DNA of 64,000 nucleotides from Eledone cirrhosa (Eukaryota), in contig OZ024743.1 of assembly GCA_964016885.1 (NCBI GenBank), positions 18,662,001-18,726,000 on the forward strand, in the 5' to 3' direction. The notes beneath the pieces were generated by a model that did not search any database, was not told where the DNA came from, and saw nothing but the letters and a program-made list of their open reading frames with translations. This document shows positions 36,001 to 62,152 of the stretch, piece after piece (positions within the stretch are counted from its first letter, which is position 1; each line of letters opens with the position of its first letter). The position numbers and the translations under genes were made by a program.

Positions 36001-39000
36001 TGATGACGGAATGATTTTCTTTATCTTTCTTCGGAAAATATATTTACTCCATTCCAGAAACTAATTAGTTGGAAGTGATTTTTTAGGAAGTAATTTAATT
36101 TCATAATTTTCTTATTTTACGACTCTCATATTATTGTTCTGCAACCCCATGCATTGAACCACATTGTTAATAAGACAAAACATATATATTTGCTAGCATT
36201 GATATGCATCTGTGTGTATATAAATGTTACTAGATATAAATTCCTTATAATTATCTCCAATTCATTTGTCGAGCAATATTTGGCCATGACTGCTACTATG
36301 GTAGTAAGCTGGCCGCTGTCTTAATAACTACTCGCTTTCCACTTATTGACCTCGATGTCACGTGATTGATTGTTTTTGAATTTGCCGCGGATGTAGAGGC
36401 AGTGATTTTCTCAATGGCTTGGAATCCAGTCCACGCATCGCTATTTCCATTCCACTGAATTATTTTTTTAATAAGTTTCCAGTGTCCTCGCTATGCCTGG
36501 ATACCTATACGTAAAAAGTCTTTCCTGATGACGGAATTATTTTCGATATGTTTCTTCTGAAAATATATTTACTCCATTCCAGAAACTAATTAGTTGGAAC
36601 TGATTTTTTAGTAAGTAAGTTAATTTTATAATTTTCTTATCTTACGTCTCTCATATTATTGTTCTGCAACCCCATGCATTGAACCACATAGTTAATAAGA
36701 CGAAACCTATGTATTTGTTAGCATTGATATGCATCTGTTTGTATATAAATGTTACTAGATAAAAATTCCTTACAATTATCTCCAATTCATTTGTCGAGCA
36801 ATATTTGGCCATGACTGCTACTATGGTAGTAAGCTGGCCGCTGTCTTAATAACCACTCGCTTTCCACTGATTCACCTCGATGTCACGTGATTGATTCTTT
36901 TTGAATTTGCTCCGGACGTAGAGGCAGTGATTTTCTCAATGGCTTGGAATCCAGTCCACGCATCGCTATTTCCATTCAACTGAATTATTTTTTGAATAAG
37001 TTTCCAGTGTCCTCGCTATGCCTGGAGACCTATACGGGAAAAGACTTTCCTGATGATGGAAAGATTTTCTATATGTTTCTTCGGAAAATATATTTACTCC
37101 ATTCCAGAAACTAATTAGTTGGAAGTGATTTTTCAGTAAGTAAGTTAATTTTATAATTTTCTTATTTTACGTCTCTCATATTATTGTTCTGCAACCCCAT
37201 GCATTGAACCACATTGTTAATAAGACAAAACCTATATATTTGCTAGCATTGATATGCATCAGTGTGTAAATAAATGTTACTAGATATAAATTCCTTATAA
37301 TTATCTCCAATTCATTTCTCGAGCAATATTTGGCCATGACTGCTACTATGGTAGTAAGCTGGCCGCTGTCTTAATAACCACTCGCTTTCCACTGATTGAC
37401 CTCGATGTCACGTGATTGATTGTTTTTGAATTTGCCGCAGATGTAGAGGCAGTGATTTTCTCAATGGCTTGGAATCCAGTCCACGCATCGCTATTTCCAT
37501 TCCACTGAATTATATTTTTAATAAGTTTCCAGTGTCCTCGCTATGCCTGGATACCTATACGTAAAAAGTCTTTCCTGATGACGGAATTATTTTCGATATG
37601 TTTCTTCTGAAAATATATTTACTCCATTCCAGAAACTAATTAGTTGGAAGTGATTTTTTAGTAAGTAAGTTAATTTTATAATTTTCTTATCTTACGTCTC
37701 TCATATTATTGTTCTGCAACCCCATGCATTGAACCACATAGTTAATAAGACGAAACCTATGTATTTGCTAGCATTGATATGCATCTGTGTGTATATAAAT
37801 GTTACTAGATAAAAATTCCTTATAATTATCTCCAATTCATTTGTCGAGCAATATTTGGCCATGACTGCTACTATGGTAGTAAGCTGGCCGCTGTCTTAAT
37901 AACCACTCGCTTTCCACTGATTCACCTCGATGTCACGTGATTGATTCTTTTTGAATTTGCTCCGGACGTAGAGGCAGTGATTTTCTCAATGGCTTGGAAT
38001 CCAGTCCACGCATCGCTATTTCCATTCAACTGAATTATTTTATTAATAGGTTTCCAGTGTCCTTGCTGTGCCTGGAGACCTATACGGAACAATACTTTCC
38101 TGATGACGGAATGATTTTCTTCGTTTCTTCGGAAAATATATTTACTCCATTCCAGAAACTAATTAGTTGGAAGTGATTTTTTAGGAAGTAAGTTAATTTT
38201 ATAATTTTCTTATTTTACGTCTCTCATATTATTGTTCTGCAACCCCATGCATTGAACCACATTGTTAATAAGACAAAACCTATATATTTGCTAGCATTGA
38301 TATGCATCTGTGTGTATATAAATGTTACTAGATATAAATTCCTTATAATTATCTCCAATTCATTTGTCGAGCAATATTTGGCCATGACTGCTACTATGGT
38401 AGTAAACTGGCCGCTGTCTTAATAACCACTCGCTTTCCACTGATTGACCTCGATATCACGTGATTGATTCTTTTTGAATCTGCCGCGGATGTAGAGGCAG
38501 TGATTTTCTCAATGGCTTGGAATCCAGTCCACGCATCGCTATTTCCATTCCACTGAATTATTTTTTGAATAAGTTTCCAGTGTCCTCGCTATGCCTTGAG
38601 ACCTATACGGAAAAAGACTTTCCTGATGACGGAATGATTTTCGATATGTTTCTTCGGAAAATATATTTACTCCATTCCAGAAACTAATTAGTTGGAAGTG
38701 ATTTTTTAGTAAGTAAGTTAATTTTATAATTTTCTTATTTTACGTCTCTCATATTATTGTTCTGCAACCCCATGCATTGAACCACATTGTTAATAAGACA
38801 AAAACTATATATTTGCTAGCATTGATATGCATGTGTGTGTATATAAATATTACTAGATATAAATTCCTTATAATTATCTCCAATTCATTTGTCGAGCAAT
38901 ATTTGGCCATGACTGCTACTATGGTAGTAAGCTGGCCGCTGTCTTAATAACCACTCGCTTTCCACTGATTCACCTCGATGTCACGTGATTGATTCTTTTT

Positions 39001-42000
39001 GAATTTGCCGCGGACGTAGAGGCAGTGATTTTCTCAATGGCTTGGAATCCAGTCCACGCATCGCTATTTCCATTCCACTGAATTATTTTTTTAATAAGTT
39101 TCCAGTGTCCTCGCTATGCCTGGAGACCTATACGGAAAAATACTTTCCTGATGACGGAATGATTTTCTTTGTTTCTTCGGAAAATATATTTACTCCATTC
39201 CAGAAACTAATTAGTTGGAAGTGATTTTTTAGGAAGTAAGTTAATTTTATAATTTTTTTATTTTACGTCTCTCATATTATTTTTCTGCAACCCCATGCAT
39301 TGAACCACATTGTTAATAAGACAAAACCTATATATTTACTAGCATTGATATGCAACTGCGTGTATATAAATGTTGCTACATATAAATTCCTTATAATTAT
39401 CTCCAATTCATTTGTCGAGCAATATTTGGCCATGACTGCTACTATGGTAGTAAGCTGGCCGCCGTCTTAATAACCACTCGCTTTCCACTGATTGACCTCC
39501 ATGTCAGATGATTGATTCTTTTTGAATTTGCCGCGGACGTAGAGGCAGTGATTTTCTCAATGGCTTGGAATCCAGTCCACGCATCGCTATTTCCATTCCA
39601 CTGAATTATTTTTTTAATAAGTTTCCAGTGTCCTCGCTATGCCTTGAGACCTATACGGAAAAAGACTTTCCTGATGACGGAATGATTTTCGATATCTTCG
39701 AAAAATATATTTACTCCATTCCAGAAACTAATTAGTTGGAAGTGATTTTTTAGTAAGTAAGTTAATTTTATAATTTTCTTATTTTACGTCTCTCATATTA
39801 TTGTTCTGCAACCCCATGCATTGAACCACATTGTTAATAAGACAAAAACTATATATTTGCTAGCATTGATATGCATGTGTGTGTATATAAATATTACTAG
39901 ATATAAATTCCTTATAATTATCTCCAATTCATTTGTCGAGCAATATTTGGCCATGACTGCTACTATGGTAGTAAGCTGGCCGCTGTCTTAATAACCACTC
40001 GCTTTCCACTGATTCACCTCGATGTCACGTGATTGATTCTTTTTGAATTTGCCGCGGACGTAGAGGCAGTGATTTTCTCAATGGCTTGGAATCCAGTCCA
40101 CGCATCGCTATTTCCATTCCACTGAATTATTTTTTTAATAAGTTTCCAGTGTCCTCGCTATGCCTGGAGACCTATACGGAAAAATACTTTCCTGATGACG
40201 GAATGATTTTCTTTGTTTCTTCGGAAAATATATTTACTCCATTCCAGAAACTAATTAGTTGGAAGTGATTTTTTAGGAAGTAAGTTAATTTTATAATTTT
40301 CTTATTTTACGTCTCTCATATTATTTTTCTGCAACCCCATGCATTGAACCACATTGTTAATAAGACAAAACCTATATATTTGCTAGCATTGATATGCATC
40401 AGTGTGTAAATAAATGTTACTAGATATAAATTCCTTATAATTATCTCCAATTCATTTGTCGAGCAATATTTGGCCATGACTGCTACTATGGTAGTAAACT
40501 GGCCGCTGTCTTAATAACCACTCGCTTTCCACTGATTGACCTCGATATCACGTGATTGATTCTTTTTGAATTTGCCGCGGACGTAGAGGCAGTGATTTTC
40601 TCAATGGCTTGGAATCCAGTCCACGCATCGCTATTTCCATTCCACTGAATTATTTTTTGAATAAGTTTCCAGTGTCCTCGCTATGCCTTGAGACCTATAC
40701 GGAAAAAGACTTTCCTGATGACGGAATGATTTTCGATATGTTTCTTCGGAAAATATATTTACTCCATTCCAGAAACTAATTAGTTGGAAGTGATTTTTTA
40801 GTAAATAAGTTAATTTTATAATTTTCTTATTTTACGTTTCTCATACTATTGTTCTGCAACCCCATGCATTGAACCTCATTGTTAATAAGACAAAAACTAT
40901 ATATTTGCTAGCATTGATATGCAACTGTGTGTATATAAATGTTGCTAGATATAAATTCCTTATAATTATCTCCAATTCATTTGTCGAGCAATATTTGGCC
41001 ATGACTGCTACTATGGTAGTAAGCTGGCCGCCGTCTTAATAACCACTCGCTTTCCACTGATTGACCTCCATGTCACATGATTGATTCTTTTTGAATTTGC
41101 CGCGGACGTAGAGGCAGTGATTTTCTCAATGGCTTGGAATCCAGTCCACGCATCGCTATTCCCATTCCACTGAATTATTTTTTTAATAAGTTTCCAGTGT
41201 CCTCGCTATGCCTGGAGACCTATACGGGAAAAGACTTTCCTGATGACGGAAAGATTATATATATATTTCTTCGGAAAATATATTTACTCCATTCCAGAAA
41301 CTAATTAGTTGGAAGTGATTTTTTAGTAAGTAAGTTAATTTTATAATTTTCTTATTTTACGTCTCTCATATTATTGTTCTGCAACCCCATGCATTGAACC
41401 ACATTGTTAATAAGACACAAACTATATATTTGCTAGCATTGATATGCATCTGTGTGTATATAAATGTTACTAGATATAAATTCCTTATAATTATCTCCAA
41501 TTCATTTGTCGAGCAATATTTAGCCATGACTGCTACTATGGTAGTAAGCTGGCCGCTGTCTTAATAACCACTCGCTTTCCACTGATTCACCTCGATGTCA
41601 CGTGATTGATTCTTTTTGAATTTGCTCCGGACGTAGAGGCAGTGATTTTCTCAATGGCTTGGAATCCAGTCCACGCATCGCTATTTCCATTCCACTGAAT
41701 TATTTTTTTAATAAGTTTCCAGTGTCCTCGCTATGCCTGGAGACCTATACGGAAAAATACTTTCCTGATGACGGAATGATTTTCTTTGTTTCTTCGGAAA
41801 ATATATTTACTCCATTCCAGAAACTAATTAGTTGGAAGTGATTTTTAAGGAAGTAAGTTAATTTTATAATTTTCTTATTTTACGTCTCTCATATTATTGT
41901 TCTGCAACCCCATGCATTGAACCACATTGTTAATAAGACAAAACCTATATATTTGCTAGCATTGATATGCATCTGTGTGTATATAAATGTTACTAGATAT

Positions 42001-45000
42001 AAATTCCTTATAATTATCTCCAATTCATTTGTCGAGCAATATTTGGCCATGACTGCTAATATGGTAGTAAGCTGGCCGCTGTCTTAATAACCACTAGCTT
42101 TCCACTGATTGACCTCGATGTTACGTGATTGATTCTTTTTCTGAATTTGCCGCGGACGTAGCTGCAGTGATTTTCTCAATGGCTTGGAATCCAGTCCAGG
42201 CATCGCTATTTCCATTCCACTGAATTATTTTTTTAATAAGTTTCCAGTGTCCTCGCTATGCCTTGAGACCTATACGGAAAAAGACTTTCCTGATGACGGA
42301 ATGATTTTCGATATGTTTCTTCGGAAAATATATTTACTCCATTCCAGAAACTAATTAGTTGGAAGTGATTTTTCAGTAAGTAAGTTAATTTTATAATTTT
42401 CTTATTTTACGTCTCTCATACTATTGTTCTGCAACCCCATGCATTGAACCACATTGTTAATAAGACAAAACCTATATATTTGCTAGCATTGATATGCATC
42501 TGTGTGTATATACATGTTGCTACATATAAATTCCTTATAATTATCTCCAATTCATTTGTCGAGCAATATTTGGCCATGACTGCTACTATGGTAGTAAGCT
42601 GGCCGCTGTCTTAATAACCACTCGCTTTCCGCTGATTGACCTCGATGTCACATGATTGATTCTTTTTGAATTTGCCGCGGACGTAGAGACAGTGATTCTC
42701 TCAATGGCTTGGAATCCAGTCCAGGCATCGCTATTTCCATTCCACTGAATTATTTTTTTAATAAGTTTCCAGTGTCCTCGCTATGCCTGGAGACCTATAC
42801 GGGAAAAGACTTTCCTGATGACGGAAAGATTTTCTATATGTTTCTTCGGAAAATATATTTACTCCAATCCAGAAACTAATTAGTTGGAAGTGATTTTTCA
42901 GTAAGTAAGTTAATTTTATAATTTTCTTATTTTACGTCTCTCATATTATTGTTCTGCAACCCCATGCATTGAACCACATTGTTAATAAGACAAAACCTAT
43001 ATATTTGCTAGCATTGATATGCATGTGTGTGTATATAAATGTTACTAGATATAAATTCCTTATAATTATCTCCAATTCATTTGTCGAGCAATATTTGGCC
43101 ATGACTGCTACTATGGTAGTAAGCTGGCCGCTGTCTTAATAACCACTCGCTTTCCACTGATTCACCTCGATGTCACGTGATTGACTCTTTTTGAATTTGC
43201 TCCGGACGTAGAAGCAGTGATTTTCTCAATGGCTTGGAATCCAGTCCACGCATCGCTATTTCCATTCGACTGAAGTATTTTTTTAATAAGTTTCCAGTGT
43301 CCTCGCTATGCCTGGAGACCTATACGGAAAAATACTTTCCTGATGACGGAATGATTTTCTTTGTTTCTTCGGAAAATATATTTACTCCATTCCAGAAACT
43401 AATTAGTTGGAAGTGATTTTTTAGGAAGTAAGTTAATTTTATAATTTTCTTATTTTACGTCTCTCATATTATTGTTCTGCAACCCCATGCATTGAACCAC
43501 ATTGTTAATAAGACAAAACCTATATATTTGCTAGCATTGATATGCATCTGTGTGTAAATAAATGTTACTAGATATAAATTCCTTATAATTATCTCCAATT
43601 CATTTGTCGAGCAATATTTGGCCATGACTGCTAATATGGTAGTAAGCTGGCCGCTGTCTTAATAACCACTCGCTTTCCACTGATTGACCTCGATGTCACG
43701 TGATTGATTGTTTTTGAATTTGCCGCGGATCTAGAGGCAGTGATTTTCTCAATGGCTTGGAATCCCGTCCACGCATCGCTATTTCCATTCCACTGAATTA
43801 TTTTTTTAATAAGTTTCCAGTGTCCTCGCTATGCCTGGATTCCTATACGTAAAAAGTCTTTCCTGATGACGGAATTATTTTCGATATGTTTCTTCGGAAA
43901 ATATATTTACTCCATTCCAGAAACTAATTAGTTGGAAGTTATTTTTTAGTAAGTAAGTTAATTTTATAATTTTCTTATCTTACGTCTCTCATATTATTGT
44001 TCTGCAACCCCATGCATTGAACCACATAGTTAATAAGACGAAACCTATGTATTTGCTAGCATTGATATGCATCTGTGTGTATATAAATGTTACTAGATAA
44101 AAATTCCTTATAATTATCTCCAATTCATTTGTCGAGCAATATTTGGCCATGACTGCTACTATGGTAGTAAGCTGGCCGCTGTCTTAATAACCACTCGCTT
44201 TCCACTGATTCACCTCGATGTCACGTGATTGATTCTTTTTGAATTTGCTCAGGACGTAGAGGCAGTGATTCTCTCAATGGCTTGGAATCCAGTCCACGCA
44301 TCGCTATTTCCATTCAACTGAATTATTTTTTTAATAAGTTTCCAGTGTCCTTGCTATGCCTGGAGACCTATACGGAACAATACTTTCCTGATGACGGAAT
44401 GATTTTCTTCGTTTCTTCGGAAAATATATTTACTCCATTCCAGAAACTAATTAGTTGGAAGTGATTTTTCAGTAAGTAAGTTAATTTTATAATTTTCTTA
44501 TTTTACGTCTCTCATATTATTGTTCTGCAACCCCATGCATTGAACCACATTGTTAATAAGACAAAACCTATATATTTGCTAGCATTGATATGCATGTGTG
44601 TGTATATAAGTGTTACTAGATATAAATTCCTTATAATTATCTCCAATTCATTTGTCGAGCAATATTTGGCCATGACTGCTACTATGGTAGTAAGCTGGCC
44701 GCTGTCTTAATAACCACTCGCTTTCCACTGATTCACCTCGATGTCACGTGATTGATTCTTTTTGAATTTGCTCCGGACGTAGAGGCAGTGATTTTCTCAA
44801 TGGCTTGGAATCCAGTCCACGCATCGCTATTTCCATTCCACTGAATTATTTTTTTAATAAGTTTCCAGTGTCCTCGCTATGCCTGGAGACCTATACGGAA
44901 AAATACTTTCCTGATGACGGAATGATTTTCTTTGTTTCTTCGGAAAATATATTTACTCCATTCCAGAAACTAATTAGTTGGAAGTGATTTTTTAGGAAGT

Positions 45001-48000
45001 AAGTTAATTTTATAATTTTCTTATTTTACGTCTCTCATATTATTTTTCTGCAACCCCATGCATTGAACCACATTGTTAATAAGACAAAACCTATATATTT
45101 GCTAGCATTGATATGCATCAGTGTGTAAATAAATGTTACTAGATATAAATTCCTTATAATTATCTCCAATTCATTTGTCGAGCAATATTTGGCCACGACT
45201 GCTACTATGGTAGTAAACTGGCCGCTGTCTTAATAACCACTCGCTTTCCACTGATTGACCTCGATATCACGTGATTGATTCTTTTTGAATTTGCCACGGA
45301 CGTAGAGGCAGTGATTTTCTCAATGGCTTGGAATCGAGTCCACGCATCGCTATTTCCATTCCACTGAATTATTATTTGAATAAGTTTCCAGTGTCCTCGC
45401 TATGCCTTGAGACCTATACGGAAAAAGACTTTCCTGATGACGGAATGATTTTCGATATGTTTCTTCGGAAAATATATTTACTCCATTCCAGAAACTAATT
45501 AGTTGGAAGTGATTTTTTAGTAAGTAAGTTAATTTTATAATTTTCTTATTTTACGTCTCTCATACTATTGTTCTGCAACCCCATGCATTGAACCACGTTG
45601 TTAATAAGACAAAACCTATATATTTGCTAGCATTGATATGCAACTGTGTGTATATAAATGTTGCTACATATAAATTCCTTATAATTATCTCCAATTCATT
45701 TGTCGAGCAATATTTGGCAATGACTGCTACTATGGTAGTAAGCTGGCCGCCGTCTTAATAACCACTCGCTTTCCACTGATTGACCTCCATGTCACATGAT
45801 TGATTCTTTTTGAATTTGCCGCGGACGTAGAGGCAGTGATTTTCTCAATGGCTTGGAATCCAGTCCACGCATCGCTATTCCCATTCCACTGAATTATTTT
45901 TTTAATAAGTTTCCAGTGTCCTCGCTATGCCTGGAGACCTATACGGGAAAAGACTTTCCTGATGACGGAAAGATTTTCTATATGTTTCTTCGGAAAATAT
46001 ATTTACTCCATTCCAGAAACTAATTAGTTGGAAGTGATTTTTTAGTAAGTAAGTTAATTTTATAATTTTCTTATTTTACGTCTCTCATATTATTGTTCTG
46101 CAACCCCATGCATTGAACTACATTGTTAATAAGACAAAAACTATATATTTGCTAGCATTGATATGCATGTGTGTGTATATAAATGTTACTAGATATAAAT
46201 TCCTTATAATTATCTCCAATTCATTTGTCGAGCAATATTTAGCCATGACTGCTACTATGGTAGTAAGCTGGCCGCTGTCTTAATAACCACTCGCTTTCCA
46301 CTGATTCACCTCGATGTCACGTGATTGATTCTTTTTGAATTTGCTCCGGACGTAGAGGCAGTGATTTTCTCAATGGCTTGGAATCCAGTCCACGCATCGC
46401 TATTTCCATTCCACTGAATTATTTTTTTAATAAGTTTCCAGTGTCCTCGCTATGCCTGGAGACCTATACGGAAAAATACTTTCCTGATGACGGAATGATT
46501 TTCTTTGTTTCTTCGGAAAATATATTTACTCCGTTCCAGAAACTAATTAGTTGGAAGTGATTTTTAAGGAAGTAAGTTAATTTTATAATTTTCTTATTTT
46601 ACGTCTCTCATATTATTGTTCTGCAACCCCATGCATTGAACCACGTTGTTAATAAGACAAAACCTATATATTTGCTAGCATTGATATGCATCTGTGTGTA
46701 TATAAATGTTACTAGATATAAATTCCTTATAATTATCTCCAATTCATTTGTCGAGCAATATTTGGCCATGACTGCTAATATGGTAGTAATTGGCCGCTGT
46801 CTTAATAACCACTCGCTTTCCACTGATTGACCTCGATGTCACGTGATTGATTCTTTTTCTGAATTTGCCGCGGACGTAGAGGCAGTGATTTTCTCAATGG
46901 CTTGGAATCCAGTCCAGGCATCGCTATTTCCATTCCACTGAATTATTTTTTTAATAAGTTTCCAGTGTCCTCGCTATGCCTTGAGACCTATACGGAAAAA
47001 GACTTTCCTGGTGACGGAATGATTTTCTTTATGTTTCTTCGGAAAATATATTTACTCCATTCCAGAAACTAATTAGTTGGAAGTGATTTTTTAGGAAGTA
47101 AGTTAATTTTATAATTTTCTTATTTTAAGTCTCTCATATTATCGTTCTGCAACCCCATGCATTGAACCACATTGTTAATAAGACAAAACCTATATATTTG
47201 CTAGCATTGATATGCATCTGTGTGTATATAAATATTACTAGATATAAATTCCTTATAATTATCTCCAATTCATTTGTCGAGCAATATTTGGCCACGACTG
47301 CTACTATGGTAGTAAACTGGCCGCTGTCTTAATAACCACTCGCTTTCCACTGATTGACCTCGATATCACGTGATTGATTCTTTTTGAATTTGCCACGGAC
47401 GTAGAGGCAGTGATTTTCTCAATGGCTTGGAATCGAGTCCACGCATCGCTATTTCCATTCCACTGAATTATTATTTGAATAAGTTTCCAGTGTCCTCGCT
47501 ATGCCTTGAGACCTATACGGAAAAAGACTTTCCTGATGACGGAATGATTTTCGATATGTTTCTTCGGAAAATATATTTACTCCATTCCAGAAACTAATTA
47601 GTTGGAAGTGATTTTTTAGTAAGTAAGTTAATTTTATAATTTTCTTATTTTACGTCTCTCATACTATTGTTCTGCAACCCCATGCATTGAACCACGTTGT
47701 TAATAAGACAAAACCTATATATTTGCTAGCATTGATATGCAACTGTGTGTATATAAATGTTGCTACATATAAATTCCTTATAATTATCTCCAATTCATTT
47801 GTCGAGCAATATTTGGGAATGACTGCTACTATGGTAGTAAGCTGGCCGCCGTCTTAATAACCACTCGCTTTCCACTGATTGACCTCCATGTCACATGATT
47901 GATTCTTTTTGAATTTGCCGCGGACGTAGAGGCAGTGATTTTCTCAATGGCTTGGAATCCAGTCCACGCATCGCTATTCCCATTCCACTGAATTATTTTT

Positions 48001-51000
48001 TTAATAAGTTTCCAGTGTCCTCGCTATGCCTGGAGACCTATACGGGAAAAGACTTTCCTGATGACGGAAAGATTTTCTATATGTTTCTTCGGAAAATATA
48101 TTTACTCCATTCCAGAAACTAATTAGTTGGAAGTGATTTTTTAGTAAGTAAGTTAATTTTATAATTTTCTTATTTTACGTCTCTCATATTATTGTTCTGC
48201 AACCCCATGCATTGAACTACATTGTTAATAAGACAAAAACTATATATTTGCTAGCATTGATATGCATGTGTGTGTATATAAATGTTACTAGATATAAATT
48301 CCTTATAATTATCTCCAATTCATTTGTCGAGCAATATTTAGCCATGACTGCTACTATGGTAGTAAGCTGGCCGCTGTCTTAATAACCACTCGCTTTCCAC
48401 TGATTCACCTCGATGTCACGTGATTGATTCTTTTTGAATTTGCTCCGGACGTAGAGGCAGTGATTTTCTCAATGGCTTGGAATCCAGTCCACGCATCGCT
48501 ATTTCCATTCCACTGAATTATTTTTTTAATAAGTTTCCAGTGTCCTCGCTATGCCTGGAGACCTATACGGAAAAATACTTTCCTGATGACGGAATGATTT
48601 TCTTTGTTTCTTCGGAAAATATATTTACTCCGTTCCAGAAACTAATTAGTTGGAAGTGATTTTTAAGGAAGTAAGTTAATTTTATAATTTTCTTATTTTA
48701 CGTCTCTCATATTATTGTTCTGCAACCCCATGCATTGAACCACGTTGTTAATAAGACAAAACCTATATATTTGCTAGCATTGATATGCATCTGTGTGTAT
48801 ATAAATGTTACTAGATATAAATTCCTTATAATTATCTCCAATTCATTTGTCGAGCAATATTTGGCCATGACTGCTAATATGGTAGTAATTGGCCGCTGTC
48901 TTAATAACCACCCGCTTTCCACTGATTGACCTCGATGTCACGTGATTGATTCTTTTTCTGAATTTGCCGCGGACGTAGAGGCAGTGATTTTCTCAATGGC
49001 TTGGAATCCAGTCCAGGCATCGCTATTTCCATTCCACTGAATTATTTTTTTAATAAGTTTCCAGTGTCCTCGCTATGCCTTGAGACCTATACGGAAAAAG
49101 ACTTTCCTGGTGACGGAATGATTTTCTTTATGTTTCTTCGGAAAATATATTTACTCCATTCCAGAAACTAATTAGTTGGAAGTGATTTTTTAGGAAGTAA
49201 GTTAATTTTATAATTTTCTTATTTTAAGTCTCTCATATTATCGTTCTGCAACCCCATGCATTGAACCACATTGTTAATAAGACAAAACCTATATATTTGC
49301 TAGCATTGATATGCATCTGTGTGTATATAAATGTTACTAGATATAAATTCCTTATAATTATCTGCAATTCATTTGTCGAGCAATATTTGGCCATGACTGC
49401 TACTATGGCAGTAAGCTGGCCGCTGTCTTAATAACCACTCCCTTTCCACTGATTGACCTCGATGTCACATGATTGATTCTTTTTGAATTTGCCGCGGACG
49501 TAGAGGCAGTGATTTTCTCAATGGCTTGGAATCCAGTCCACGCATCGCTATTTCCATTCCACTGAATTATTTTTTTAATAAGTTTCCAGTGTCCTCGCTA
49601 TGCCTGGATACCTATACGTAAAAAGTCTTTCCTGATGACGGAATGATTTTCGATATGTTTCTTCGGAAAATATATTTACTCCATTCCAGAAACTAATTAG
49701 TTGGAAGTGATTTTTTAGTAAGTAAGTTAATTTTATAATTTTCTTATCTTACGTCTCTCATATGATTGTTCTGCAACCCCATGCATTGAACCACATTGTT
49801 AATAAGACAAAACCAATGTATTTGCTAGCATTGATATGCATCTGTGTGTCTATAAATGTTACTAGATATAAATTCCTTATAATTATCTCCAATTCATTTG
49901 TCGAGCAATATTTGGCCATGACTGCTACTATGGTAGTAAGCTGGCCGCTGTCTTAATAACCACTCGCTTTACACTGATTGACCTCGATATCACGTGATTG
50001 ATTCTTTTTGAATTTGCCGCGGACGTAGAGGCAGTGATTTTCTCAATGGCTTGGAATCCAGTCCACGCATCGCTATTTCCATTCCACTGAATTATTTTTT
50101 TAATAGGTTTCCAGTGTCCTCGCTATGCCTGGAGACCTATACGGAAAAAGAATTTCCTTCGGACGGAAAGATTTTCTATATGTTTCTTCGGAAAATCTAT
50201 TTACTCCATTCCAGAAACTAATTAGTTGGAAGTGATTTTTTAGTAAGTTAATTTTATAATTTTTTTTATTTTACGTCTCTCATATTATTGTTCTGCAACC
50301 CCATGCATTGAACCACATTGTTAATAAGACAAAACCTATATATTTGCTAGCATTGATATGCATCTGTGTGTATATAAATGTTACTAGATATAAATTCCTT
50401 ATAATTATCTCCAATTCATTTGTCTAGCAATATTTGGCCATGACTGCTACTATGGTAGTAAGCTGGCCGCTGTCTTAATAACCACTCGCATTCCACTGAT
50501 TGACCTCGATGTAACGTGATTGATTGTTTTTAAATTTGCCGCGGACGTAGAGGCAGTGATTTTCTCAATATCTTGGAATCCAGTCCACGCATCGCTATTT
50601 CCATTCCACTGAATAATTTTTTTAATAATTTTCCAGTGTCCTCGCTATGCCTGGAGACCTATACGGAAAAAGACTTTCCTGATGACGGAATGATTTTCGA
50701 TATGTTTCTTCGGAAAATATATATACTCCATTCCAGAAACTAATTAGTTGGACGTGATTTTTTAGTAAGTAAGTTAATTTTATAATTTTCTTATTTTACG
50801 TCTTCATATTATTGTTCTGCAACCCCATGCATTGAACCACATTGTTAATATGACAAAACCTATATATTTGCTAGCATTGATATTCATCTGTGTGTATATA
50901 AATTTTACTAGATATAAATTCCTTATAATTATCTCCAATTCATTTGTCGAGCAATATATGGCCATGACTGCTACTATGGTAGTAAGCTGGCCGCTGTCTT

Positions 51001-54000
51001 AATAACCACTCGCTTTCCACTGATTTACCTCGATGTAACGTGATTGATTGTTTTTAAATTTGCCTCGGACGTAGAGGCAGTGATTTTCTCAATGGCTTGG
51101 AATCCAGTCCACGCATCGCTATTTCCATTCCACTGAATTATTTGTTTAATAAGTTTCCAGTGTCCTCGCTATGCCTGGAGACCTATACGGAAAAATACTT
51201 TCCTGATGACGGAATGATTTTCTTTGTTTCTTCGGAAAATATATTTACTCCATTCCAGAAACTAATTAGTTGGAAGTGATTTTTAAGGAAGTAAGTTAAT
51301 TTTATAATTTTCTTATTTTACGTCTCTCAAATTATTGTTCTGCAACCCCATGCATTGAACCACGTTGTTAATAAGACAAAATCTATATATTTGCTAGCAT
51401 TGATATGCATATGTGTGTATATAAATGTTACTAGATATAAATTCCTTATAATTATCTCCAATTCATTTGTCGAGCAATATTTGGCCATGACTGCTAATAT
51501 GGTAGTAAGCTGGCCGCTGTCTTAATAACCACTCGCTTTCCACTGATTGACCTCGATGTCACGTGATTGATTCTTTTTCTGAATTTGCCGCGGACGTAGA
51601 GGCAGTGATTTTCTCAATGGCATGGAATCCAGTCCACGCATCGCTATTTCCATTCCACTGAATTATTTTTTTAATAAGTTTCCAGTGTCCTCGCTATGCC
51701 TTGAGACCTATACGGAAAAAGACTTTCCTGATGACGGAATGATTTTCGATATCTTTCTTCGGAAAATATATTTACTCCATTCCAGAAACTAATTAGTTGG
51801 AAGTGATTTTTTAGTAAGTAAGTTCATTTTATAATTTTCTTATTTTACGTCTTTCATATTATTGTTCTGCAACCCCATGCATTGAACCACATTGTTAATA
51901 TGACAAAACCCATATATTTGCTAGCATTGATATTCAGCTGTGTGTATATAAATGTTACTACATATAAATTCCTTATAATTATCTCCAATTCATTTGTCGA
52001 GCAATATTTGGCCATGACTGCTACTATGGTAGTAAGCTGGCCGCTGTCTTAATAACCACTCGCTTTCCACTGATTCACCTCGATGTCACGTGATTGATTC
52101 TTTTTGAATTTGCTCCGGACGTAGAGGCAGTGATTTTCTCGATGGCTTGGAATCCAGTCCACGCATCGCTATTTCCATTCCACTGAATTATTTTTTTAAA
52201 AGGTTTCCAGTGTCCTCGCCATGCCTGGAGACCTATACGGAAAAAGAATTTCCTTCGGACGGAAAGATTTTCTATATGTTTCTTCGGAAAATCTATTTAC
52301 TCCATTCCAGAAACTAATTAGTTGGAATGATTTTTTAGTAAGTTAATTTTATAAATTTTTTTATTTTACGTCTCTCATATTATTGTTCTGCAACCCCATG
52401 CATTGAACCACATTGTTAATAAGACAAAACCTATATATTTGCTAGCATTGATATGCATCTGTGTGTATATAAATGTTACTAGATATAAATTCCTTATAAT
52501 TATCTCCAATTCATTTGTCGAGCAATATTTGGCCATGACTGCTACTATGGTAGTAAGCTGGCCGCTGTCTTAATAACCACTCGCATTCCACTGATTGACC
52601 TCGATGTAACGTGATTGATTGTTTTTAAATTTGCCGCGGACGTAGAGGCAGTGATTTTCTCAATGGCTTGGAATCCAGTCCACGCATCGCTATTTCCATT
52701 CCACTGAATTATTTTTTTAATAAGTTTCCAGTGTCCTCGCTATGCCTGGAGACCTATACGGAAAAAGACTTTCCTGATGACGGAATGATTTTCGATATGT
52801 TTCTTCGGAAAATATATATACTCCATTCCAGAAACTAATTAGTTGGACGTGATTTTTTAGTAAGTAAGTTAATTTTATAATTTTCTTATTTTAAGTCTTT
52901 CATATTATTGTTCTGCAACACCCATGCATTGAACCACGTTGTTAATATGACAAAACCTATATATTTGCTAGCATTGATATTCATCTGTGTGTATATAAAT
53001 GTTACTAGATATAAATTCCTTATAATTATCTCCAATTCATTTGTCGAGCAATATATGGCCATGACTGCTACTATGGTAGTAAGCTGGCCGCTGTCTTAAT
53101 AACCACTCGCTTTCCACTGATTGACCTCGATGTAACGTGATTGATTGTTTTTAAATTTGCCTCGGACGTAGAGGCAGTGATTTTCTCAATGGCTTGGAAT
53201 CCAGTCCACGCATCGCTATTTCCATTCCACTGAATTATTTGTTTAATAAGTTTCCAGTGTCCTCGCTATGCCTGGAGACCTATACGGAAAAATACTTTCC
53301 TGATGACGGAATGATTTTCTTTGTTTCTTCGGAAAATATATTTACTCCATTCCAGAAACTAATTAGTTGGAAGTGATTTTTAAGGAAGTAAGTTAATTTT
53401 ATAATTTTCTTATTTTACGTCTCTCAAATTATTGTTCTGCAACCCCATGCATTGAACCACGTTGTTAATAAGACAAAACCTATATATTTGCTAGCATTGA
53501 TATGCATCTGTGTGTATATAAATGTTACTAGATATAAATTCCTTATAATTATCTCCAATTCATTTGTCGAGCAATATTTGGCCATGACTGCTACTATGGC
53601 AGTAAGCTGGCCGCTGTCTTAATAACCACTCCCTTTCCACTGATTGACCTCGATGCACATGATTGATTCTTTTTGAATTTGCCGCGGACGTAGAGGCAGT
53701 GATTTTCTCAATGGCTTGGAATCCAGTCCACGCATCGCTATTTCCATTCCACTGAATTATTTTTTTAATAAGTTTCCAGTGTCCTCGCTATGCCTGGATA
53801 CCTATACGTAAAAAGTCTTTCCTGATGACGGAATGATTTTCGATATGTTTCTTCGGAAAATATATTTACTCCATTCCAGAAACTAATTAGTTGGAAGTGA
53901 TTTTTTAGTAAGTAAGTTAATTTTATAATTTTCTTATCTTACGTCTCTCAAATTATTGTTCTGCAACCCCATGCATTGAACCACGTTGTTAATAAGACAA

Positions 54001-57000
54001 AACCTATATATTTGCTAGCATTGATATGCATCTGTGTGTATATAAATGTTACTAGATATAAATTCCTTATAATTATCTCCAATTCATTTGTCGAGCAATA
54101 TTTGGCCATGACTGCTACTATGGTAGTAAGCTGGCCGCTGTCTTAATAACCACTCGCTTTACACTGATTGACCTCGATATCACGTGATTGATTCTTTTTG
54201 AATTTGCCGCGGACGTAGAGGCAGTGATTTTCTCAATGGCTTGGAATCCAGTCCACGCATCGCTATTTTCCATTCCACTGAATTATTTTTTTAATAGGGT
54301 TCCAGTGTCCTCGCTATGCCTGGAGACCTATACGGAAAAAGAATTTCATTCGGACGGAAAGATTTTCTATATGTTTCTTCGGAAAATCTATTTACTCCAT
54401 TCCAGAAACTAATTAGTTGGAAGTGATTTTTTAGTAAGTTAATTTTATAATTTTTTTTATTTTACGTCTCTCATATTATTGTTCTGCAACCCCATGCATT
54501 GAACCACATTGTTAATAAGACAAAACCTATATATTTGCTAGCATTGATATGCATCTGTGTGTATATAAATGTTACTAGATATAAATTCCTTATAATTATC
54601 TCCAATTCATTTGTCGAGCAATATTTGGCCATGACTGCTACTATGGTAGTAAGCTGGCCGCTGTCTTAATAACCACTCGCATTCCACTGATTGACCTCGA
54701 TGTAACGTGATTGATTGTTTTTAAATTTGCCGCGGACGTAGAGGCAGTGATTTTCTCAATGTCTTGGAATCCAGTCCACGCATCGCTATTTCCATTCCAC
54801 TGAATAATTTTTTTAATAAGTTTCCAGTGTCCTCGCTATGCCTGGAGACCTATACGGAAAAAGACTTTCCTGATGACGGAAAGATTTTCCATATGTTTCT
54901 TAGGAAAATATATATACTCCATTCCAGAAACTAATTAGTTGGACGTGATTTTTTAGTAAGTAAGTTAATTTTATAATTTTCTTATTTTACGTCTCTCATA
55001 TTATTGTTCTGCAACCCCATGCATTGAACCACATTGTTAATAAGACAAAACCTATATATTTGCTAGCATTGATATGCATGTGTGTGTATATAAATGTTAC
55101 TAGATATACATTCCTTATAATTATCTCCAATTCATTTGTCGAGCAATATTTGGCCATGACTGCTACTCTGGTAGTAAGCTGGCTGCTGTCTTAATAACCA
55201 CTCGCTTTCCACTGATTGACCTCGATGTCACGTGATTGATTCTTTTTGAATTTGCTCCGGACGTAGAGGCAGTGATTTTCTCAATGGCTTGGAATCGAGT
55301 CCACGCATCGCTATTTCCATTCCACTGAATTATTTTTTTAATAGGTTTCCAGTGTCCTCGCTATGCCTGGAGACCTATACGGAAAAAGAATTTCCTTCGG
55401 ACGGAAAGATTTTCTATATGTTTCTTCGGAAAATCTATTTACTCCATTCCAGAAACTAATTAGTTGGAATGATTTTTTAGTAAGTTAATATTATAATTTT
55501 TTTTATTTTACGTCTCTCATATTATTGTTCTGCAACCCCATGCATTGAACCACATTGTTAATAAGACAAAACCTATATATTTGCTAGCATTGATATGCAT
55601 CTGTGTGTATATAAATGTTACTAGATATAAATTCCTTATAATTATCTCCAATTCATTTGTCGAGCAATATTTGGCCATGACTGCTACTATGGTAGTAAGC
55701 TGGCCGCTGTCTTAATAACCACTCGCATTCCACTGATTGACCTCGATGTAACGTGTTTGATTGTTTTTAAATTTGCCGCGGACGTAGAGGCAGTGATTTT
55801 CTCAATGGCTTGGAATCCAGTCCACGCATCGCTATTTCCATTCCACTGAATTATTTTTTTAATAAGTTTCCAGTGTCCTCGCTATGCCTGGAGACCTATA
55901 CGTAAAAAGACTTTCCTGATGACGGAATGATTTTCGATATGTTTCTTCGGAAAATATATATACTCCATTCCAGAAACTAATTAGTTGGACGTGATTTTTT
56001 AGTAAGTAAGTTAATTTTATAATTTTCTTATTTTACGTCTTTCATATTATTGTTCTGCAACCCCATGCATTGAACCACATTGTTAATATGACAAAACCTA
56101 TATATTTGCTAGCATTGATATTCATCTGTGTGTATATAAATGTTACTAGATATAAATTCCTTATAATTATCTCCAATTCATTTGTCGAGCAATATATGGC
56201 CATGACTGCTACTATGGTAGTAAGCTGGCCGCTGTCTTAATAACCACTCGCTTTCCACTGATTTACCTCGATGTAACGTGATTGATTGTTTTTAAATTTG
56301 CCTCGGACGTAGAGGCAGTGATTTTCTCAATGTCTTGGAATCCAGTCCACGCATCGCTATTTCCATTCCATTGAATTATTTGTTTAATAAGTTTCCAGTG
56401 TCCTCGCTATGCCTGGAGACCTATACGGAAAAATACTTTCCTGATGACGGAATGATTTTCTTTGTTTCTTCGGAAAATATATTTACTCCATTCCAGAAAC
56501 TAATTAGTTGGAAGTGATTTTTAAGGAAGTAAGTTAATTTTATAATTTTCTTATTTTACGTCTCTCAAATTATTGTTCTGCAACCCCATGCATTGAACCA
56601 CGTTGTTAATAAGACAAAACCTATATATTTGCTAGCATTGATATGCATCTGTGTGTATATAAATGTTACTAGATATAAATTCCTTATAATTATCTCCAAT
56701 TCATTTGTCGAGCAATATTTGGCCATGACTGCTAATATGGTAGTAAGCTGGCCGCTGTCTTAATAACCACTCGCTTTCCACTGATTGACCTCGATGTCAC
56801 GTGATTGATTCTTTTTCTGAATTTGCCGCGGACGTAGAGGCAGTGATTTTCTCAATGGCTTGGAATCCAGTCCAGGCATCGCTATTTCCATTCCACTGAA
56901 TTATTTTTTTAATAAGTTTCCAGTGTCCTCGCTATGCCTTGAGACCTATACGGAAAAAGACTTTCCTGATGACGGAATGATTTTCGATATCTTTCTTCGT

Positions 57001-60000
57001 AAAATATATTTACTCCATTCCAGAAACTGATTAGTTGGAAGTGATTTTTTAGTAAGTAAGTTAATTTTATAATTTTCTTATTTTACGTCTTTCATATTAT
57101 TGTTGTGCAACCCCATGCATTGAACCACATTGTTAATATGACAAAACCCATATATTTGCTAGCATTGATATTCAGCTGTGTGTATATAAATGTTACTAGA
57201 TATAAATTCCTTATAATTATCTCCAATTCATTTGTCGAGCAATATTTGGCCATAACTGCTACTATGGTAGTAAGCTGGCCGCTGTCTTAATAACCACTCG
57301 CTTTCCACTGATTGACCTCGATGTCACGTGATTGATTCTTTTTGAATTTGCTCCGGACGTAGAGGCAGTGATTTTCTCAATGGCTTGGAATCCAGTCCAC
57401 GCATCGCTATTTCCATTCCACTGAATTATTTTTTTAATAGGTTTCCAGTGTCCTCGCCATGCCTGGAGACATATACGGAAAAAGAATTTCCTTCGGACGG
57501 AAAGATTTTCTATATGTTTCTTCGGAAAATATATTTAATCCATTCCAGAAACTAATTAGTTGGAAATGATTTTTTAGTAAGTAAGTTAATTTTATAATTT
57601 TCTTATTTTACGTCTTTCATATTATTGTTCTGCAACCCCATGCATTGAACCACATTGTTAATAAAACAAAACTTATATATTTGCTAGCATTGATATGCAT
57701 CTGTGTGTATATAAATGTTACTAGATATAAATTCCTTATAATTATCTCCAATTCATTTGTCGAGCAATATTTGGCCATGACTGCTACTATGGTAGTAAGC
57801 TGGCCGCTGTCTTAATAACCACTCGCTTTCCACTGATTGACCTCGATGTAACGTGATTGATTGTTTTTAAATTTGCCGCGGACGTAGAGGCAGTGATTTT
57901 CTCAATGGCTTGGAATCCAGTCCACGCATCGCTATTTCCATTCCACTGAATTATTTTTTTAATAAGTTCCCAGTGTCCTCGCTATGCCTGGCGACCTATA
58001 CGTAAAAAGACTTTCCTGATGACGGAATGATTTTCGATATGTTTCTTCGGAAAATATATTTACTCCATTCCAGAAACTAATTAGTTGGAAGTGATTTTTT
58101 AGTAAGTAAGTTAATTTTATAATTTTCTTATCTTACGTCTCTCATATTATTGTTCTGCAACCCCATGCATTGAACCACATTGTTAATAAGACAAAACCTA
58201 TATATTTGCTAGCATTGATATGCATGTGTGTGTATATAAATGTTACTAGATATAAATTCCTTATAATTATCTCCAATTCATTTGTCGAGCAATATTTGGC
58301 TATGACTGCTACTATGGTAGTAAGCTGGCCGCTGTCTTAATAACCACTCGCTTTCCACTGATTGACCTCGATGTCACGTGATTGATTCTTTTTGAATTTG
58401 CTCCGGACGTAGAGGCAGTGATTTTCTCAATGGCTTGGAATCCAGTCCACGCATCGCTATTTCCATTCCACTGAATTATTTTTTAATATGTTTCCAGTGT
58501 CCTTGCTATGCCTGGAGACCTATACGGGAAAAGAGTTTACTGATGACGGAAAGATTTTCTATATGTTTCTTCGGAAAATATATTTACTCCATTCCAGAAA
58601 CTAATTAGTTGGAAATGATTTTTAGTAAGTAAGTTAATTTTATAATTTTCTTATTTTACGTCTTTCATATTATTGTTCTGCAACCCCATGCATTGAACCA
58701 CATTGTTAATAAGAGAAAACTTATATATTTGCTAGCATTGATATGCATGTGTGTATATAAATGTCACTAGATATAAATTCCTTATAATTATCTCCAATTC
58801 ATTTGTCGAGCAATATTTGGCCATGACTGCTAGTATGGTAGTAAGCTGGCCGCTGTCTTAATAACCACTCGCTTTCCACTGATTGACCTCGATGTCACGT
58901 GATTGATTCTTTTTGAATTTGCCGCGGACGTAGAAGCAGTGATTTTCTCAATGGCTTGGAATCCAGTCCACGCATCGCTATTTCCATTCCACTGTATTAT
59001 TTTTTTTAGTAAGTTTCCAGTGTCCTCGCTATGCCTGGAGACCTATACGGAAAAATACTTTCCTGATAACGGAATGATTTTCGATATGTTTCTTCGGAAA
59101 ATATATTTACTCCATTCCAGAAACTAATTAGTTGGAAGTGATTTTTTAGTAAGTAAGTTAATTTTATAATTTTCTTATCTTACTTCTCTCATATTATTGT
59201 TCTGCAACCCCATGCATTGAGCCACATTGTTAATAAGACAAAACCTATATATTTGCTAGCATTGATATGCATCTGTGTGTATATAAATGTTACCAGATAT
59301 AAATTCCTTATAATTATCTCCAATTCATTTGTCGAGCAATATTTGGCCATGACTGCTACTATGGTAGTAAGCTGGCCGCTGTCTTAATAACCACTCGCTT
59401 TCCACCGATTGACCTCGATGTCATGTGATTGATTCTTTTTGAATTTGCTCCGGACGTAGAGGCAGTGATTTTCTCAATGGCTTGGAATCCAGTCCACGCA
59501 TCGCTATTTCCATTCCGCTGAATTATTTTTTGAATAAGTTTCCAGTGTCCTCGCTATACCTGGAGACCTATACGGGAAAATACTTTCCTGATGACGGAAA
59601 GATTTTCCGTATGTTTCTTCGGAAATTATATTTACTCCATTCCAGAATCTAATTAGTTGGAAGTGATTTCTTAGTAAGTAAGTTAATTTTATAATTTTCT
59701 TATTTTACGTCTTTCATATTATTGGTCTGCAACCCCATGCATTGAACCACATTGTTAATAAGACAAAACTTATATATTTGCTAGCATTGATATGCATCTG
59801 TGTGTATATAAATGTCACTAGATATAAATTCCTTATAATTATCTCCAATTCATTTGTCGAGCAATATTTGGCCATGACTGCTACTATGGTAGTAAGCTGG
59901 CCGCTGTCTTAATAACCACTCGCTTTCCACTGATTGACCTCGATGTCACGTGATTGATTCTTTTTGAATTTGCCGCGGACGTAGAGGCAGTGATTTTCTC

Positions 60001-60235
60001 AATGGCTTGGAATCCTGTCCACGCATCGCTATTTCCATTCCACTGAATTATTTTTTGTAATATGTTTCCAGTGTTCTCGCTATGCCTGGAGACCTATACG
60101 GAAAAAGACTTTCCTGATGACGGAATGATTTTCGATATGTTTCTTCGGAAAATATATTTACTCCATTCCAGAACCTAATTAGTTGGAAGTGATTTTTTCG
60201 TAAGTAAGTTAATTTTATAATATCCTTATTTTACG

Positions 60236-60241
<6 letters not shown>
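1..60241 (+). repeat. Tandem satellite array, ~524.5 bp monomer (521-527 bp length variants), ~115 copies, truncated by the left window edge
   Basis: The landmark tgctagcattgatatgca occurs at 1, 526 and 1053 and recurs head-to-tail to about 59.8 kb. Spacings in the ORF track are multiples of ~524 (523, 1048, 1573, 2099). Length classes come from small indels: ttctttgtttc (-2), tttttctgaa (+2), and gatatcttcgaaaaa or tttagtaagttaa (-4). Confidence 0.99.
323..418 (+). ncRNA. Putative type I hammerhead ribozyme (first copy; the motif recurs once per monomer and is degenerate in some)
   Basis: Stem I ACUUUC 329-334 / GGAAGU 406-411, extended by AAAAAU 323-328 / AUUUUU 413-418. Core CUGAUGA 335-341. 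Stem II GGAAUG 343-348 / CAUUCC 385-390. GAAA 392-395. Stem III ACU-AAUU-AGU 395-404. Cleavage triplet GUU 403-405. Atypical C342/A391 opposition at the base of stem II. Folded by eye only. Confidence 0.68.

Positions 60242-60319
<78 letters not shown>
60242..60319. repeat. (AT)39 microsatellite terminating the array
   Basis: Perfect AT run directly after the monomer sequence ...gtctctc. Confidence 0.98.
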
Positions 60320-60325
<6 letters not shown>

Positions 60326-60431
60326 CCTAAAATAAGAAAATTATAAAATTAACTTACTTACTAAAAAGTCACTCCCAACTAATTAGTTTCTGGAATGGAG
60401 TAAATATATTTCCCGAAGAAGATATAGAGAA
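60320..60431 (-). repeat. Inverted partial monomer (3' half of the hammerhead motif plus downstream AT-rich segment)
   Basis: The reverse complement reads ttctctatatcttcttcgggaaatatatttactccattccagaaactaattagttgggagtgactttttagtaagtaagttaattttataattttcttattttaggtctctc, which matches monomer positions ~350-462. Confidence 0.96.
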
Positions 60432-60435
60432 TATA

Positions 60436-61100
60436 TATAATTTTCTTAATTTACGTATCTCATATTATTGTTCTGCAACCCCATGCATTAAACCACAATG
60501 TTACTAAGACAAAACCTATATATTTGCTAGCATCGATATGCATCTGTATGTATATATATGTTACTAGATATTAATTCTTTCTAATTATCTCTAAATTATT
60601 TGTCGAGCAATATTGGCCATGACTGCTGCTATGGTAGTAGGCAGGCCGCTGTCTTATTAGCAAACCACTTTCCACTGATTGACCTCGATGTCACGTGATT
60701 GATTCTTTTTGAATTTTCCACAGACGCAGAGGCAGTGATTTTCTCAATGGCTAGGAATTCAGTCCACTCTTTGCTATTTCCTATCCACTCAATTATTTTT
60801 TAATAAGTTTCCAGAGTCCTCGCTTTGCCTGGAAACTTAGATGAGAATAGACTTCCCTGATGACGGAATGTTTCTCCATATCTTCTTCGGAAAATATATT
60901 TACTCCATTCCAGAAACTAATTAGTTGGAAGTGATATTTTAGTAAGTAAGTTAATTTTATAATTTTCTTATTTTACGCCTCTCATATTATTGTTCTGCAA
61001 CCCCATGCATTAAACCAGAATGTTACTAAGACAAAATCTATATATTTGCTAGCATCGATATGCATCTGTATGTATATATATGTTACTATATATTAATTCT

Positions 61101-61103
<3 letters not shown>
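60436..61103 (+). repeat. Diverged ~1.27-monomer copy of the satellite unit with ~145 bp terminal redundancy
   Basis: Collinear with the monomer, with about 50 differences per unit by manual count (~10%). Segments ~60436-60581 and ~60958-61103 share private variants (cattaaacc, ttactaag, catcgat, ctgtatg). Confidence 0.95.
60844..60940 (+). ncRNA. Putative type I hammerhead ribozyme in the diverged flanking copy
   Basis: Stem I ACUUCC 60851-60856 / GGAAGU 60927-60932 is fully Watson-Crick. CUGAUGA 60857-60863. Stem II GGAAUG 60865-60870 / CAUUCC 60906-60911. GAAA 60913-60916. GUU 60924-60926. Confidence 0.7.

Positions 61104-61157
<54 letters not shown>
61104..61157. repeat. (TA)27 microsatellite
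   Basis: Perfect TA run at the point where the diverged monomer stops. Confidence 0.97.
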
Positions 61158-61162
<5 letters not shown>

Positions 61163-61434
61163 TAGGTTATGCATGAAATGCTTAGGATTATCCTGAATGC
61201 AGTAATGGTTAATTACTACACTATATAGAGTCGACGGACGTTGAGGTGTTACTCAATGAGTTATAAAAGAACAGTTAAAGAAACTCGATTTCCGATTCCT
61301 CTGTATTCCGGAGTGTAGTAACTACTAAAGGGACATTTTAAAGCACTCGGAATAAACTACCTTTTTATGATGTCTACCTCTTTTATTAAACATTCTTTAT
61401 AAATATATATATCTATATATCAATATATATTTAT

Positions 61435-61436
<2 letters not shown>

Positions 61437-61496
<60 letters not shown>
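61437..61496. repeat. (AT)30 microsatellite with a degenerate TA-rich left flank
   Basis: Direct reading of the sequence. Confidence 0.97.
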
Positions 61497-61499
<3 letters not shown>

Positions 61500-62152
61500 A
61501 TACATTAACAGAGAAAGCGTCAAGCAATACTAGTACCGACTTCCGTCTCACCCAATAAACATTATGATATGCTAATATAATAGTATAATCCCAATTATAA
61601 ACGTATAATGGCAATTATACTTTTGGGGTGCTAACTATACGTATTTTGCGGTTAGCCAGTTGTATTATTTCATATGCGACAAAATTAAAGACATCCCTCT
61701 TTCCAAACGATCGTTTCATCATAAGTTTTCTACAAGTTGGGAAAATAATGTGTAGGTTATGTAGAAGCTTACACATAGTCCATAGGAATATATGCAGGTG
61801 GGCAATTATAAATCATCAGTAGATGCCCAACAATATCGATATAAAAAAAAACCTACCGATATTAACATTCAGCGATGGTTCCCGTCAATGTTCGAGTTAC
61901 CGCCAAATTTGAAATTCCAGCAGCCTCACAAAGAGAAATCTCACACCGTCACAAAACAGGAAGCGGAAGTCATCGAAAAACATAAAAAGTTAAAATAATA
62001 TGCACGCAGGTCAATTAATTATGTCAAGAATTGTAACCATGCGCTAAGAACTCAATTTTATATTATACAAATTAAATACATCCCTCTTTCCTAACGAGGT
62101 CTTTTTCTCCACTATTGGCCCTGTAGTTGATGAAAATGGCATATATCTATAC

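Follow-up and report, generated by a model that had tools for sequence, protein, structure and literature searches.

A predicted hammerhead ribozyme in an Eledone cirrhosa satellite, with modest support for past selection on its fold

A long satellite array in Eledone cirrhosa ends beside a diverged copy of its own repeat unit, and both carry a motif that resembles a hammerhead ribozyme. This raises the question of whether the differences between them record selection on RNA structure and, if so, when such selection acted. The locus lies in the 64,000 nucleotides analysed here, referred to as the window (contig OZ024743.1 of assembly GCA_964016885.1, positions 18,662,001 to 18,726,000, forward strand; coordinates below count from its first letter). 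A preliminary description of this sequence had read the flank copy as a trace of selection on RNA structure in the ancestral element.

Layout of the locus and anatomy of the motif

The array and the sequences at its right-hand end are arranged as follows.

1..60244, plus strand: tandem array of a 525-bp unit, 35% GC, continuing beyond the left edge of the window
60242..60319, no strand: (AT)39 microsatellite, at which array and inverted fragment both have their 3' ends
60317..60432, minus strand: inverted 5'-truncated piece, unit positions 76-192, with the distal hairpin, GAAAC, palindrome and stem I 3' strand
60436..61105, plus strand: diverged forward copy spanning about 1.3 units (164-525 followed by 1-311) and differing by 10% from the consensus of the array
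60668..60716, plus strand: second unchanged block of 49 nt outside the ribozyme, with CACGTG at 60692-60697
61104..61162, no strand: (TA)29 microsatellite, adjoining the forward copy's 3' end

The motif is covered by 115 array units, with one hammerhead in each. The array ends at about unit position 192, where it abuts (AT)39. The inverted fragment, in which CUGAUGA and the 5' halves of stems I and II are missing, belongs to the subfamily of the forward copy, with which it has three differences in common. These two pieces lie back to back, with their 5' truncations at a shared junction and their 3' ends facing outward into (TA)n. Two 3' ends recur at microsatellites, one at 60987 (unit position about 192) and one at 61093-61105 (about 300-311). 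The flank element holds two copies of unit positions 164-309 (60436-60583 and 60958-61103), which differ from each other at 6 of 146 positions and have nine differences from the array in common; the divergence between these duplicated segments offers a rough clock of the insertion. A short related stretch, found by eye, occurs twice past the flank element (61684-61715 and 62073-62100), amid (TA)n and (AG)n tracts.

In the forward copy the motif divides into five parts.

60840..60856, plus strand: helix I 5' strand, comprising an extension (60840-60849), unpaired G60850 and the core-proximal 6 nt (60851-60856)
60857..60864, plus strand: core CUGAUGA (C3 to A9, with N7 at 60861), and unpaired C60864 between positions 9 and 10.1
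60865..60911, plus strand: long helix II arm, with a 6-bp stem (60865-60870/60906-60911) and a 7x8 internal loop
60912..60926, plus strand: extra A60912, GAAAC (60913-60917) and a 12-nt palindrome (60915-60926; helix III, dimer contact)
60927..60944, plus strand: helix I 3' strand (60927-60932), two unpaired nt and an extension (60935-60944) in which A60936 pairs with U60848

The hammerhead position numbers used here (C3-A9, N7, 10.1, H17) are those that we take to apply to this motif. On that numbering it has the form of a type I hammerhead with a palindromic helix III: the CUGANGA box at 60857-60863 follows the helix I 5' strand, in which C60855 is paired with G60928, and the palindrome ends in a GUU triplet (60924-60926), which places the predicted cut at 60926/60927. 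The distal hairpin of the helix II arm (60878-60897) is capped by C(UUCG)G, and loops of this kind are stable.

We evaluated the specificity of the motif with a relaxed type I descriptor of our own, which gave one match each in the consensus and the flank copy and none in 20,000 dinucleotide-shuffled monomers searched on both strands. The pairing register is likewise specific, with 21 of 21 pairs valid unslid against 8-12 when one strand is slid. The Rfam hammerhead families gave no match above the gathering threshold in the whole window, and the 20 Rfam matches at E up to 10 within 59900-61200 included no hammerhead. The folding energy of the flank motif was no better than that of shuffles (z=-0.19). 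Two other readings were dropped: an alternative core using GAAA at 60890-60893, which leaves no helix III, and a C/D-box snoRNA, for which no terminal CUGA box was seen by eye and no Rfam match was obtained.

The closest published description is that of the hammerheads of Penelope-like elements (PLEs), whose consensus is given as CUGANGAH, G...C, GAAAN, a palindrome and NUH, with GUU common (PMC4209133). The available part of that report describes a type I form, an unpaired nucleotide between 9 and 10.1, G10.1-C11.1, a palindromic helix III and GUU, as here. In our motif, unpaired C60864 is followed by G10.1-C11.1 (G60865-C60911), and A15.1-U16.1 (A60916-U60925) and the NUH triplet GUU precede the helix I 3' strand. 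Helix III is a short palindrome, for which folding predicts a 12-nt duplex of -10.8 kcal/mol and no monomer hairpin. Two features differ from the consensus. GAAA does not directly follow C11.1, owing to the extra A60912 (or, read otherwise, a C.A mismatch at the base of helix II); the corresponding AGAAA stands in 1 of about 56 PLE rows in the portion of PMC4209133 consulted, and a U.U mismatch at the corresponding place has been reported for an active axolotl motif. Helix II consists of 6 bp with a 35-nt insert that forms a second hairpin, so that the arm covers 50 nt and includes both an internal loop and a UUCG hairpin, whereas the PLE helices listed there have 4-8 bp and short loops. Helix I is also longer here than in PLE hammerheads, and no linked RT-EN gene was found. 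Given these two departures, and as self-cleavage is a prediction, the motif is not filed as a plain member of the PLE consensus class.

A dimer fold was predicted to be 8-9 kcal/mol better than two monomers for three of four adjacent unit pairs, two of which gave identical values (the fourth was skipped on account of an indel). The same fold sits 11-12 kcal/mol above the unconstrained minimum of the two-unit RNA.

Where the flank copy and the array differ

The differences themselves are largely as first described. Between the forward copy (60436-61105) and the array consensus, 68 of 678 columns differ (10.0%), matching the 10% given in the preliminary description. CUGAUGA (60857-60863) and both stem II strands (60865-60870 and 60906-60911) are unchanged, the unchanged stretch put at about 50 nt measures 53 nt (60883-60935), and the seven or so substitutions just upstream number seven within 60834-60848. 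In stem I a U.G pair becomes C-G through T>C at 60855, and in its extension an A-U pair becomes U-A through T60848 and A60936; the A without its partner does occur at 29259 and 32407, in 2 of the 115 array units. To these we add pair-keeping changes at 60842, 60844 and 60845 and pair-breaking changes at 60840 and 60882, all missed earlier.

The inverted fragment had also been cited, for two A>G changes said to keep pairing as wobbles. Both changes are present (60412 and 60374). Because neither the core nor the 5' strand of stem I or stem II is contained in the fragment, only the change at 60412 has its partner. At 60368 a further, previously unmentioned change would break a pair in the stem I extension, and at the equivalent of 60936 the fragment shows the array letter rather than the "compensatory" A. 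Lacking CUGAUGA and the helix I 5' strand, and carrying the pair-breaking change at 60368, the fragment provides no evidence for selection.

Flank and array monomers differ at 55 of 523 columns. The comparison of change density in core and stems with the rest of the unit, put forward earlier as a check, did not favour the motif, which is not depleted: its 106 nt contain 12 changes, where the rate outside it predicts 10.4. These numbers suit a neutral account, in which the hammerhead is real and inherited, the flank-versus-array pattern reflects chance clustering together with transitions opposite U- and G-runs, and any selection predates both copies. Several further tests point the same way. 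Neither the longest unchanged run (at least 53 nt, P=0.11) nor the occurrence of at least one double, compensatory change (P=0.12) is significant, and both are among the items on which the preliminary description had relied. Nor are the absence of core changes (P=0.26) and the clustering of 8 changes in the 22 nt upstream (P=0.10). Covariation within the window is not above that of shuffles (260 and 58 of 500; 52 distinct motif variants), and four of the five kept pairs in the flank are one-sided transitions.

The placement of the changes argues against this account. Of seven changed pairs in the flank five still pair, in contrast to 5 of 34 distinct states among array variants (Fisher P=0.0055); leaving out the gap-rich distal hairpin gives 5 of 6 against 4 of 26 (P=0.0033). 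Simulations that use the observed transition share (20/41) still yield P=0.012 for no more than two broken among seven changed pairs under the observed substitution spectrum, and P=0.008 for 11 randomly placed substitutions sparing the core, helices I and II and the palindrome. Taking the related sequencing runs below into account as well, we consider the neutral account unlikely. Since the significant tests were chosen after inspection of the data and draw on a single pairwise comparison, they are read as moderate support only. Structural selection gains modest support from the positions of the changes, not from their number, and selection on RNA structure before the copies became fixed appears to be the best reading. 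The earlier conclusion is thus plausible and moderately supported, on grounds other than those first given (the kept and broken pairs, the placement of changes and the related sequencing runs); the evidence then cited, taken singly, is not significant.

The array itself presents a different picture. Across 108 full units aligned, the mean distance from unit to consensus is 12.7 columns. The core is intact in 97 of the 115 units and mutated in 18, and nine of those 18 have an identical dead core in which G5 and A6 are changed. The nine units start at 15477, 19675, 21248, 23342, 50096, 52192, 54287, 55334 and 57430, the shared core having spread via array duplication. Derived alleles per site are more frequent in the motif than outside it (0.66 against 0.47), and 29 of the 34 distinct variant pair states break pairing. 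The present array units are under no such selection, and the array is decaying.

This bears on a further possibility, namely that selection acts on the array now, with the host keeping the ribozyme for processing of satellite transcripts, as has been argued for the cricket satellite pDo500. In its favour, 59 of the 115 units have a fully intact motif, 87 have an intact core and no stem with more than one broken pair, and palindrome variants are few (three alleles across 12 sites). The mutated and shared dead cores, the preponderance of broken pair states and the excess of derived alleles in the motif all run against it, and we regard it as very unlikely.

Blocks of several kb recur within the array 30,421 bases apart at 99.8-99.9% identity (for example about 14001-20000 and 44422-50421), which fits amplification of the array at the DNA level. 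Other offsets common within the array are 31,473, 33,565, 28,848 and 2,099.

Related sequencing runs and a second conserved block

Eight of 11 listed sequencing runs, from four studies, contain part of the stretch, and none reaches half of its words; no RNA run is among the listed holders, which is evidence neither way. Four of them (X1, X4, X7 and X9) were aligned to one 520-nt monomer (60584-61103) at 80% likeness; X9 loose ends of low agreement were left out. The variant figures below come from the 40 of 165 variants listed, are unphased, and express read depth, which does not equal copy number.

Among these 40 variants, the only core position that varies is N7 (60861), where C accounts for 54%, 37% and 50% of the depth in X1, X4 and X9. 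N7 is a known variable position of the uridine turn; in pDo500 most uridine-turn changes fall there, according to the report on 198 of its sequences (PMC2837043). In two X4 contigs the loose end, assumed to abut 60895, gives by eye a distal hairpin of eight pairs, in which double changes turn one U-A into G-C and another U-A into A-U. These double changes speak against the neutral account, which draws some support from unpartnered helix II variants in the same 40, at 60866 (34-64%) and 60869 (24-46%). Frequent changes with no partner among the 40 also occur in helix I at 60851 (12-43%) and, in its extension, at 60841 (47-63%), and all four positions count against the reading favoured below.

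At the substitutions that separate flank from array, the same listed variants show the array letter at 1 of 13 within 60834-60944 and at 16 of 39 in other parts (P=0.04). A tentative reading is that the flank holds the family-typical helix I and that it was the array lineage that changed. In fifteen X1 contigs (AT)n begins at 60987, a 3' end shared with the array and the inverted piece. Between 60961 and 61017 the sequence is common to another abundant repeat, which diverges after 61017 (the same loose end in X1, X7 and X9). A hole in X9 depth at 60923-60960 was considered as divergence at the cut site and set aside as a digest artefact, all six listed ends lying at AATT sites on inspection by eye. 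Pattern scans of metagenome contigs (28 stretches) and a viral contig (one) returned none of 29 with complementary helices I and II or wider homology; we therefore attribute those matches to chance.

Outside the ribozyme, the 49-nt run at 60668-60716 is also unchanged between flank and array and is followed by an unchanged run of 41 nt. Read depth peaks there in three runs, and in the related runs the block forms an island of conservation. In one X7 contig the match is confined to 60689-60708 and 60905-60929, spaced 198 letters apart against 196 here (depth 3; short matching sides can mislead). Given this two-island match, the block looks like a second functional element and not like evidence for chance, and we regard it as a candidate promoter element of the terminal repeat. 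Its CACGTG, which we take to be an E-box, has a TGATTGA word on either side; the block, present in every unit, lies 140-190 nt upstream of the hammerhead. Two overlapping GTAAGT words at 60942-60951, directly past helix I, are presumably splice-donor-like; introns are possible beside the hammerhead in PLE terminal repeats.

These observations touch on the idea that the unchanged stretch was kept as DNA or primary sequence, as a protein site, a start of reverse transcription or a product of conversion from the array, and not as a fold. Divergence stays low beyond the ribozyme to the 3' end of the element (two changes in positions 142-192), and the second block is equally conserved without being part of the ribozyme. 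Such conservation leaves the pair keeping in helix I, the variation at N7 and the double changes in the distal hairpin unexplained, and we judge it highly improbable as the main cause.

A possible history and its relation to known elements

From the observed anatomy, placement statistics and array decay we infer a Penelope origin, cleavage as a dimer and a time at which selection acted. In the reading that we favour, at a probability of roughly 70%, this is a PLE-derived hammerhead repeat whose fold was selected during transposition and which was then amplified as a satellite and decayed. The unit would be a non-coding derivative of a PLE terminal repeat, of the non-LTR retrozyme type. A terminal repeat with a probable promoter block and a dimer-type hammerhead would have spread using PLE protein in trans, inserting into (TA)n, as the observed layout shows. 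With a helix III probably too short to act alone, the palindromes of neighbouring units may pair within one transcript, allowing cleavage at GUU. The array founder and the flank insertion would then represent different transposing lineages of one family, and the hammerhead fold would have been selected while these lineages passed through RNA; selection during such passages would account for flank-versus-array differences that lie in loops or keep pairs. One monomer would subsequently have been amplified at the DNA level into the satellite, where selection ended and variants came to break pairs and cores. The flank piece would be a separate insertion into a (TA)n tract at the end of the array.

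Consistent with this, the flank has a PLE-type layout, a partial tandem with an adjoining inverted 5'-truncated copy at a microsatellite target, and the same layout is reported for PLE insertions in the sections of Craig et al. available to us (PMC8557442). PLE families full of covariation, and opposite-strand copies 100-700 bp apart, are described in PMC4209133, along with a D. willistoni array in which 450-bp repeats number up to 85. The two 3' ends here are 110-120 nt apart, in contrast to the narrower 30-40 bp of the PLE tail. Among 13 scanned frames (59443-63473) we found no remnant of a reverse transcriptase or endonuclease and no Pfam family at E<0.01, and the best match in the PLE-protein scan (E=0.044) fell below the cut-off. 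The 13 were chosen from 34 listed frames by setting aside microsatellite frames, short frames and those that repeated the same unit frame.

Animal non-LTR retrozymes are head-to-tail, low-GC repeats with one type I hammerhead each and no ORF, in the part of PMC7229834 consulted. Here, 97 of the 115 cores are intact, GC is 35% and the 13 frames are free of Pfam families. Retrozyme arrays reach 62, 180 or 300 units, with units of 51-972 bp (PMC7229834; bioRxiv 10.64898/2026.07.22.740005), and an origin from pLTRs has been proposed for them (bioRxiv 10.64898/2026.07.22.740005). Our unit is longer than the usual 150-450 bp. The same preprint reports cleavage in vitro for one of nine Xenopus retrozyme dimers, so activity of the motif described here cannot be assumed.

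The Dolichopoda satellite pDo500 (Martinsen et al. 2010, PMC2837043) is also similar, being a satellite of about 500 bp that contains a hammerhead with compensatory stem changes. Its motif is compact (49 nt), in contrast to the long helix II arm here, and its ribozyme is reported as more conserved than the rest of the repeat, whereas here changes are no scarcer in the motif than outside it and the array decays. Selection seen through compensatory changes in a satellite hammerhead is already published, as the accessible portions of PMC2837043 and PMC4209133 document.

A further likeness is to the "HHR_half_core" of Naiad PLEs (Craig et al. 2021, PMC8557442), which also have (TA)n targets and inverted 5'-truncated copies. 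In eight Naiad families the halves of the core lie 35-50 nt apart and are missed by descriptors, as the available text of that paper has it. Assignment to this clade requires a protein, of which we found none here. Of four sequence words of the element sought in the part of the PMC8557442 supplement at hand, three were absent; the fourth gave four matches, the two listed of which stand in an ORF-like context. In the literature searched we found no two-part helix II architecture, which Lunse et al. and the PMC4209133 supplement possibly cover, and no occurrence of the phrase "extended stem II" in that on hammerheads (PMC11167929, PMC6765202, PMC3088659 and PMC13725137 were among the literature consulted). 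We suggest, tentatively and with considerable doubt, that the motif may represent an active architecture missed by Rfam and the usual descriptors, combining a two-part helix II arm of about 50 nt, a covarying hairpin, a C.A mismatch at the base and a palindrome-bridged dimer.

If this is true, the widely spaced half-core motifs of (TA)n-targeting PLEs would be real ribozymes, and the long helix II arm would mean that hammerheads are undercounted in animal repeats by standard searches. The contrast between flank and array would also allow selection on a satellite ribozyme to be timed by comparing polymorphism with divergence. Selection on the fold between subfamilies but not within the array, if it took place, would support the view of satellite hammerheads as leftovers of transposition and not structures kept by the host.
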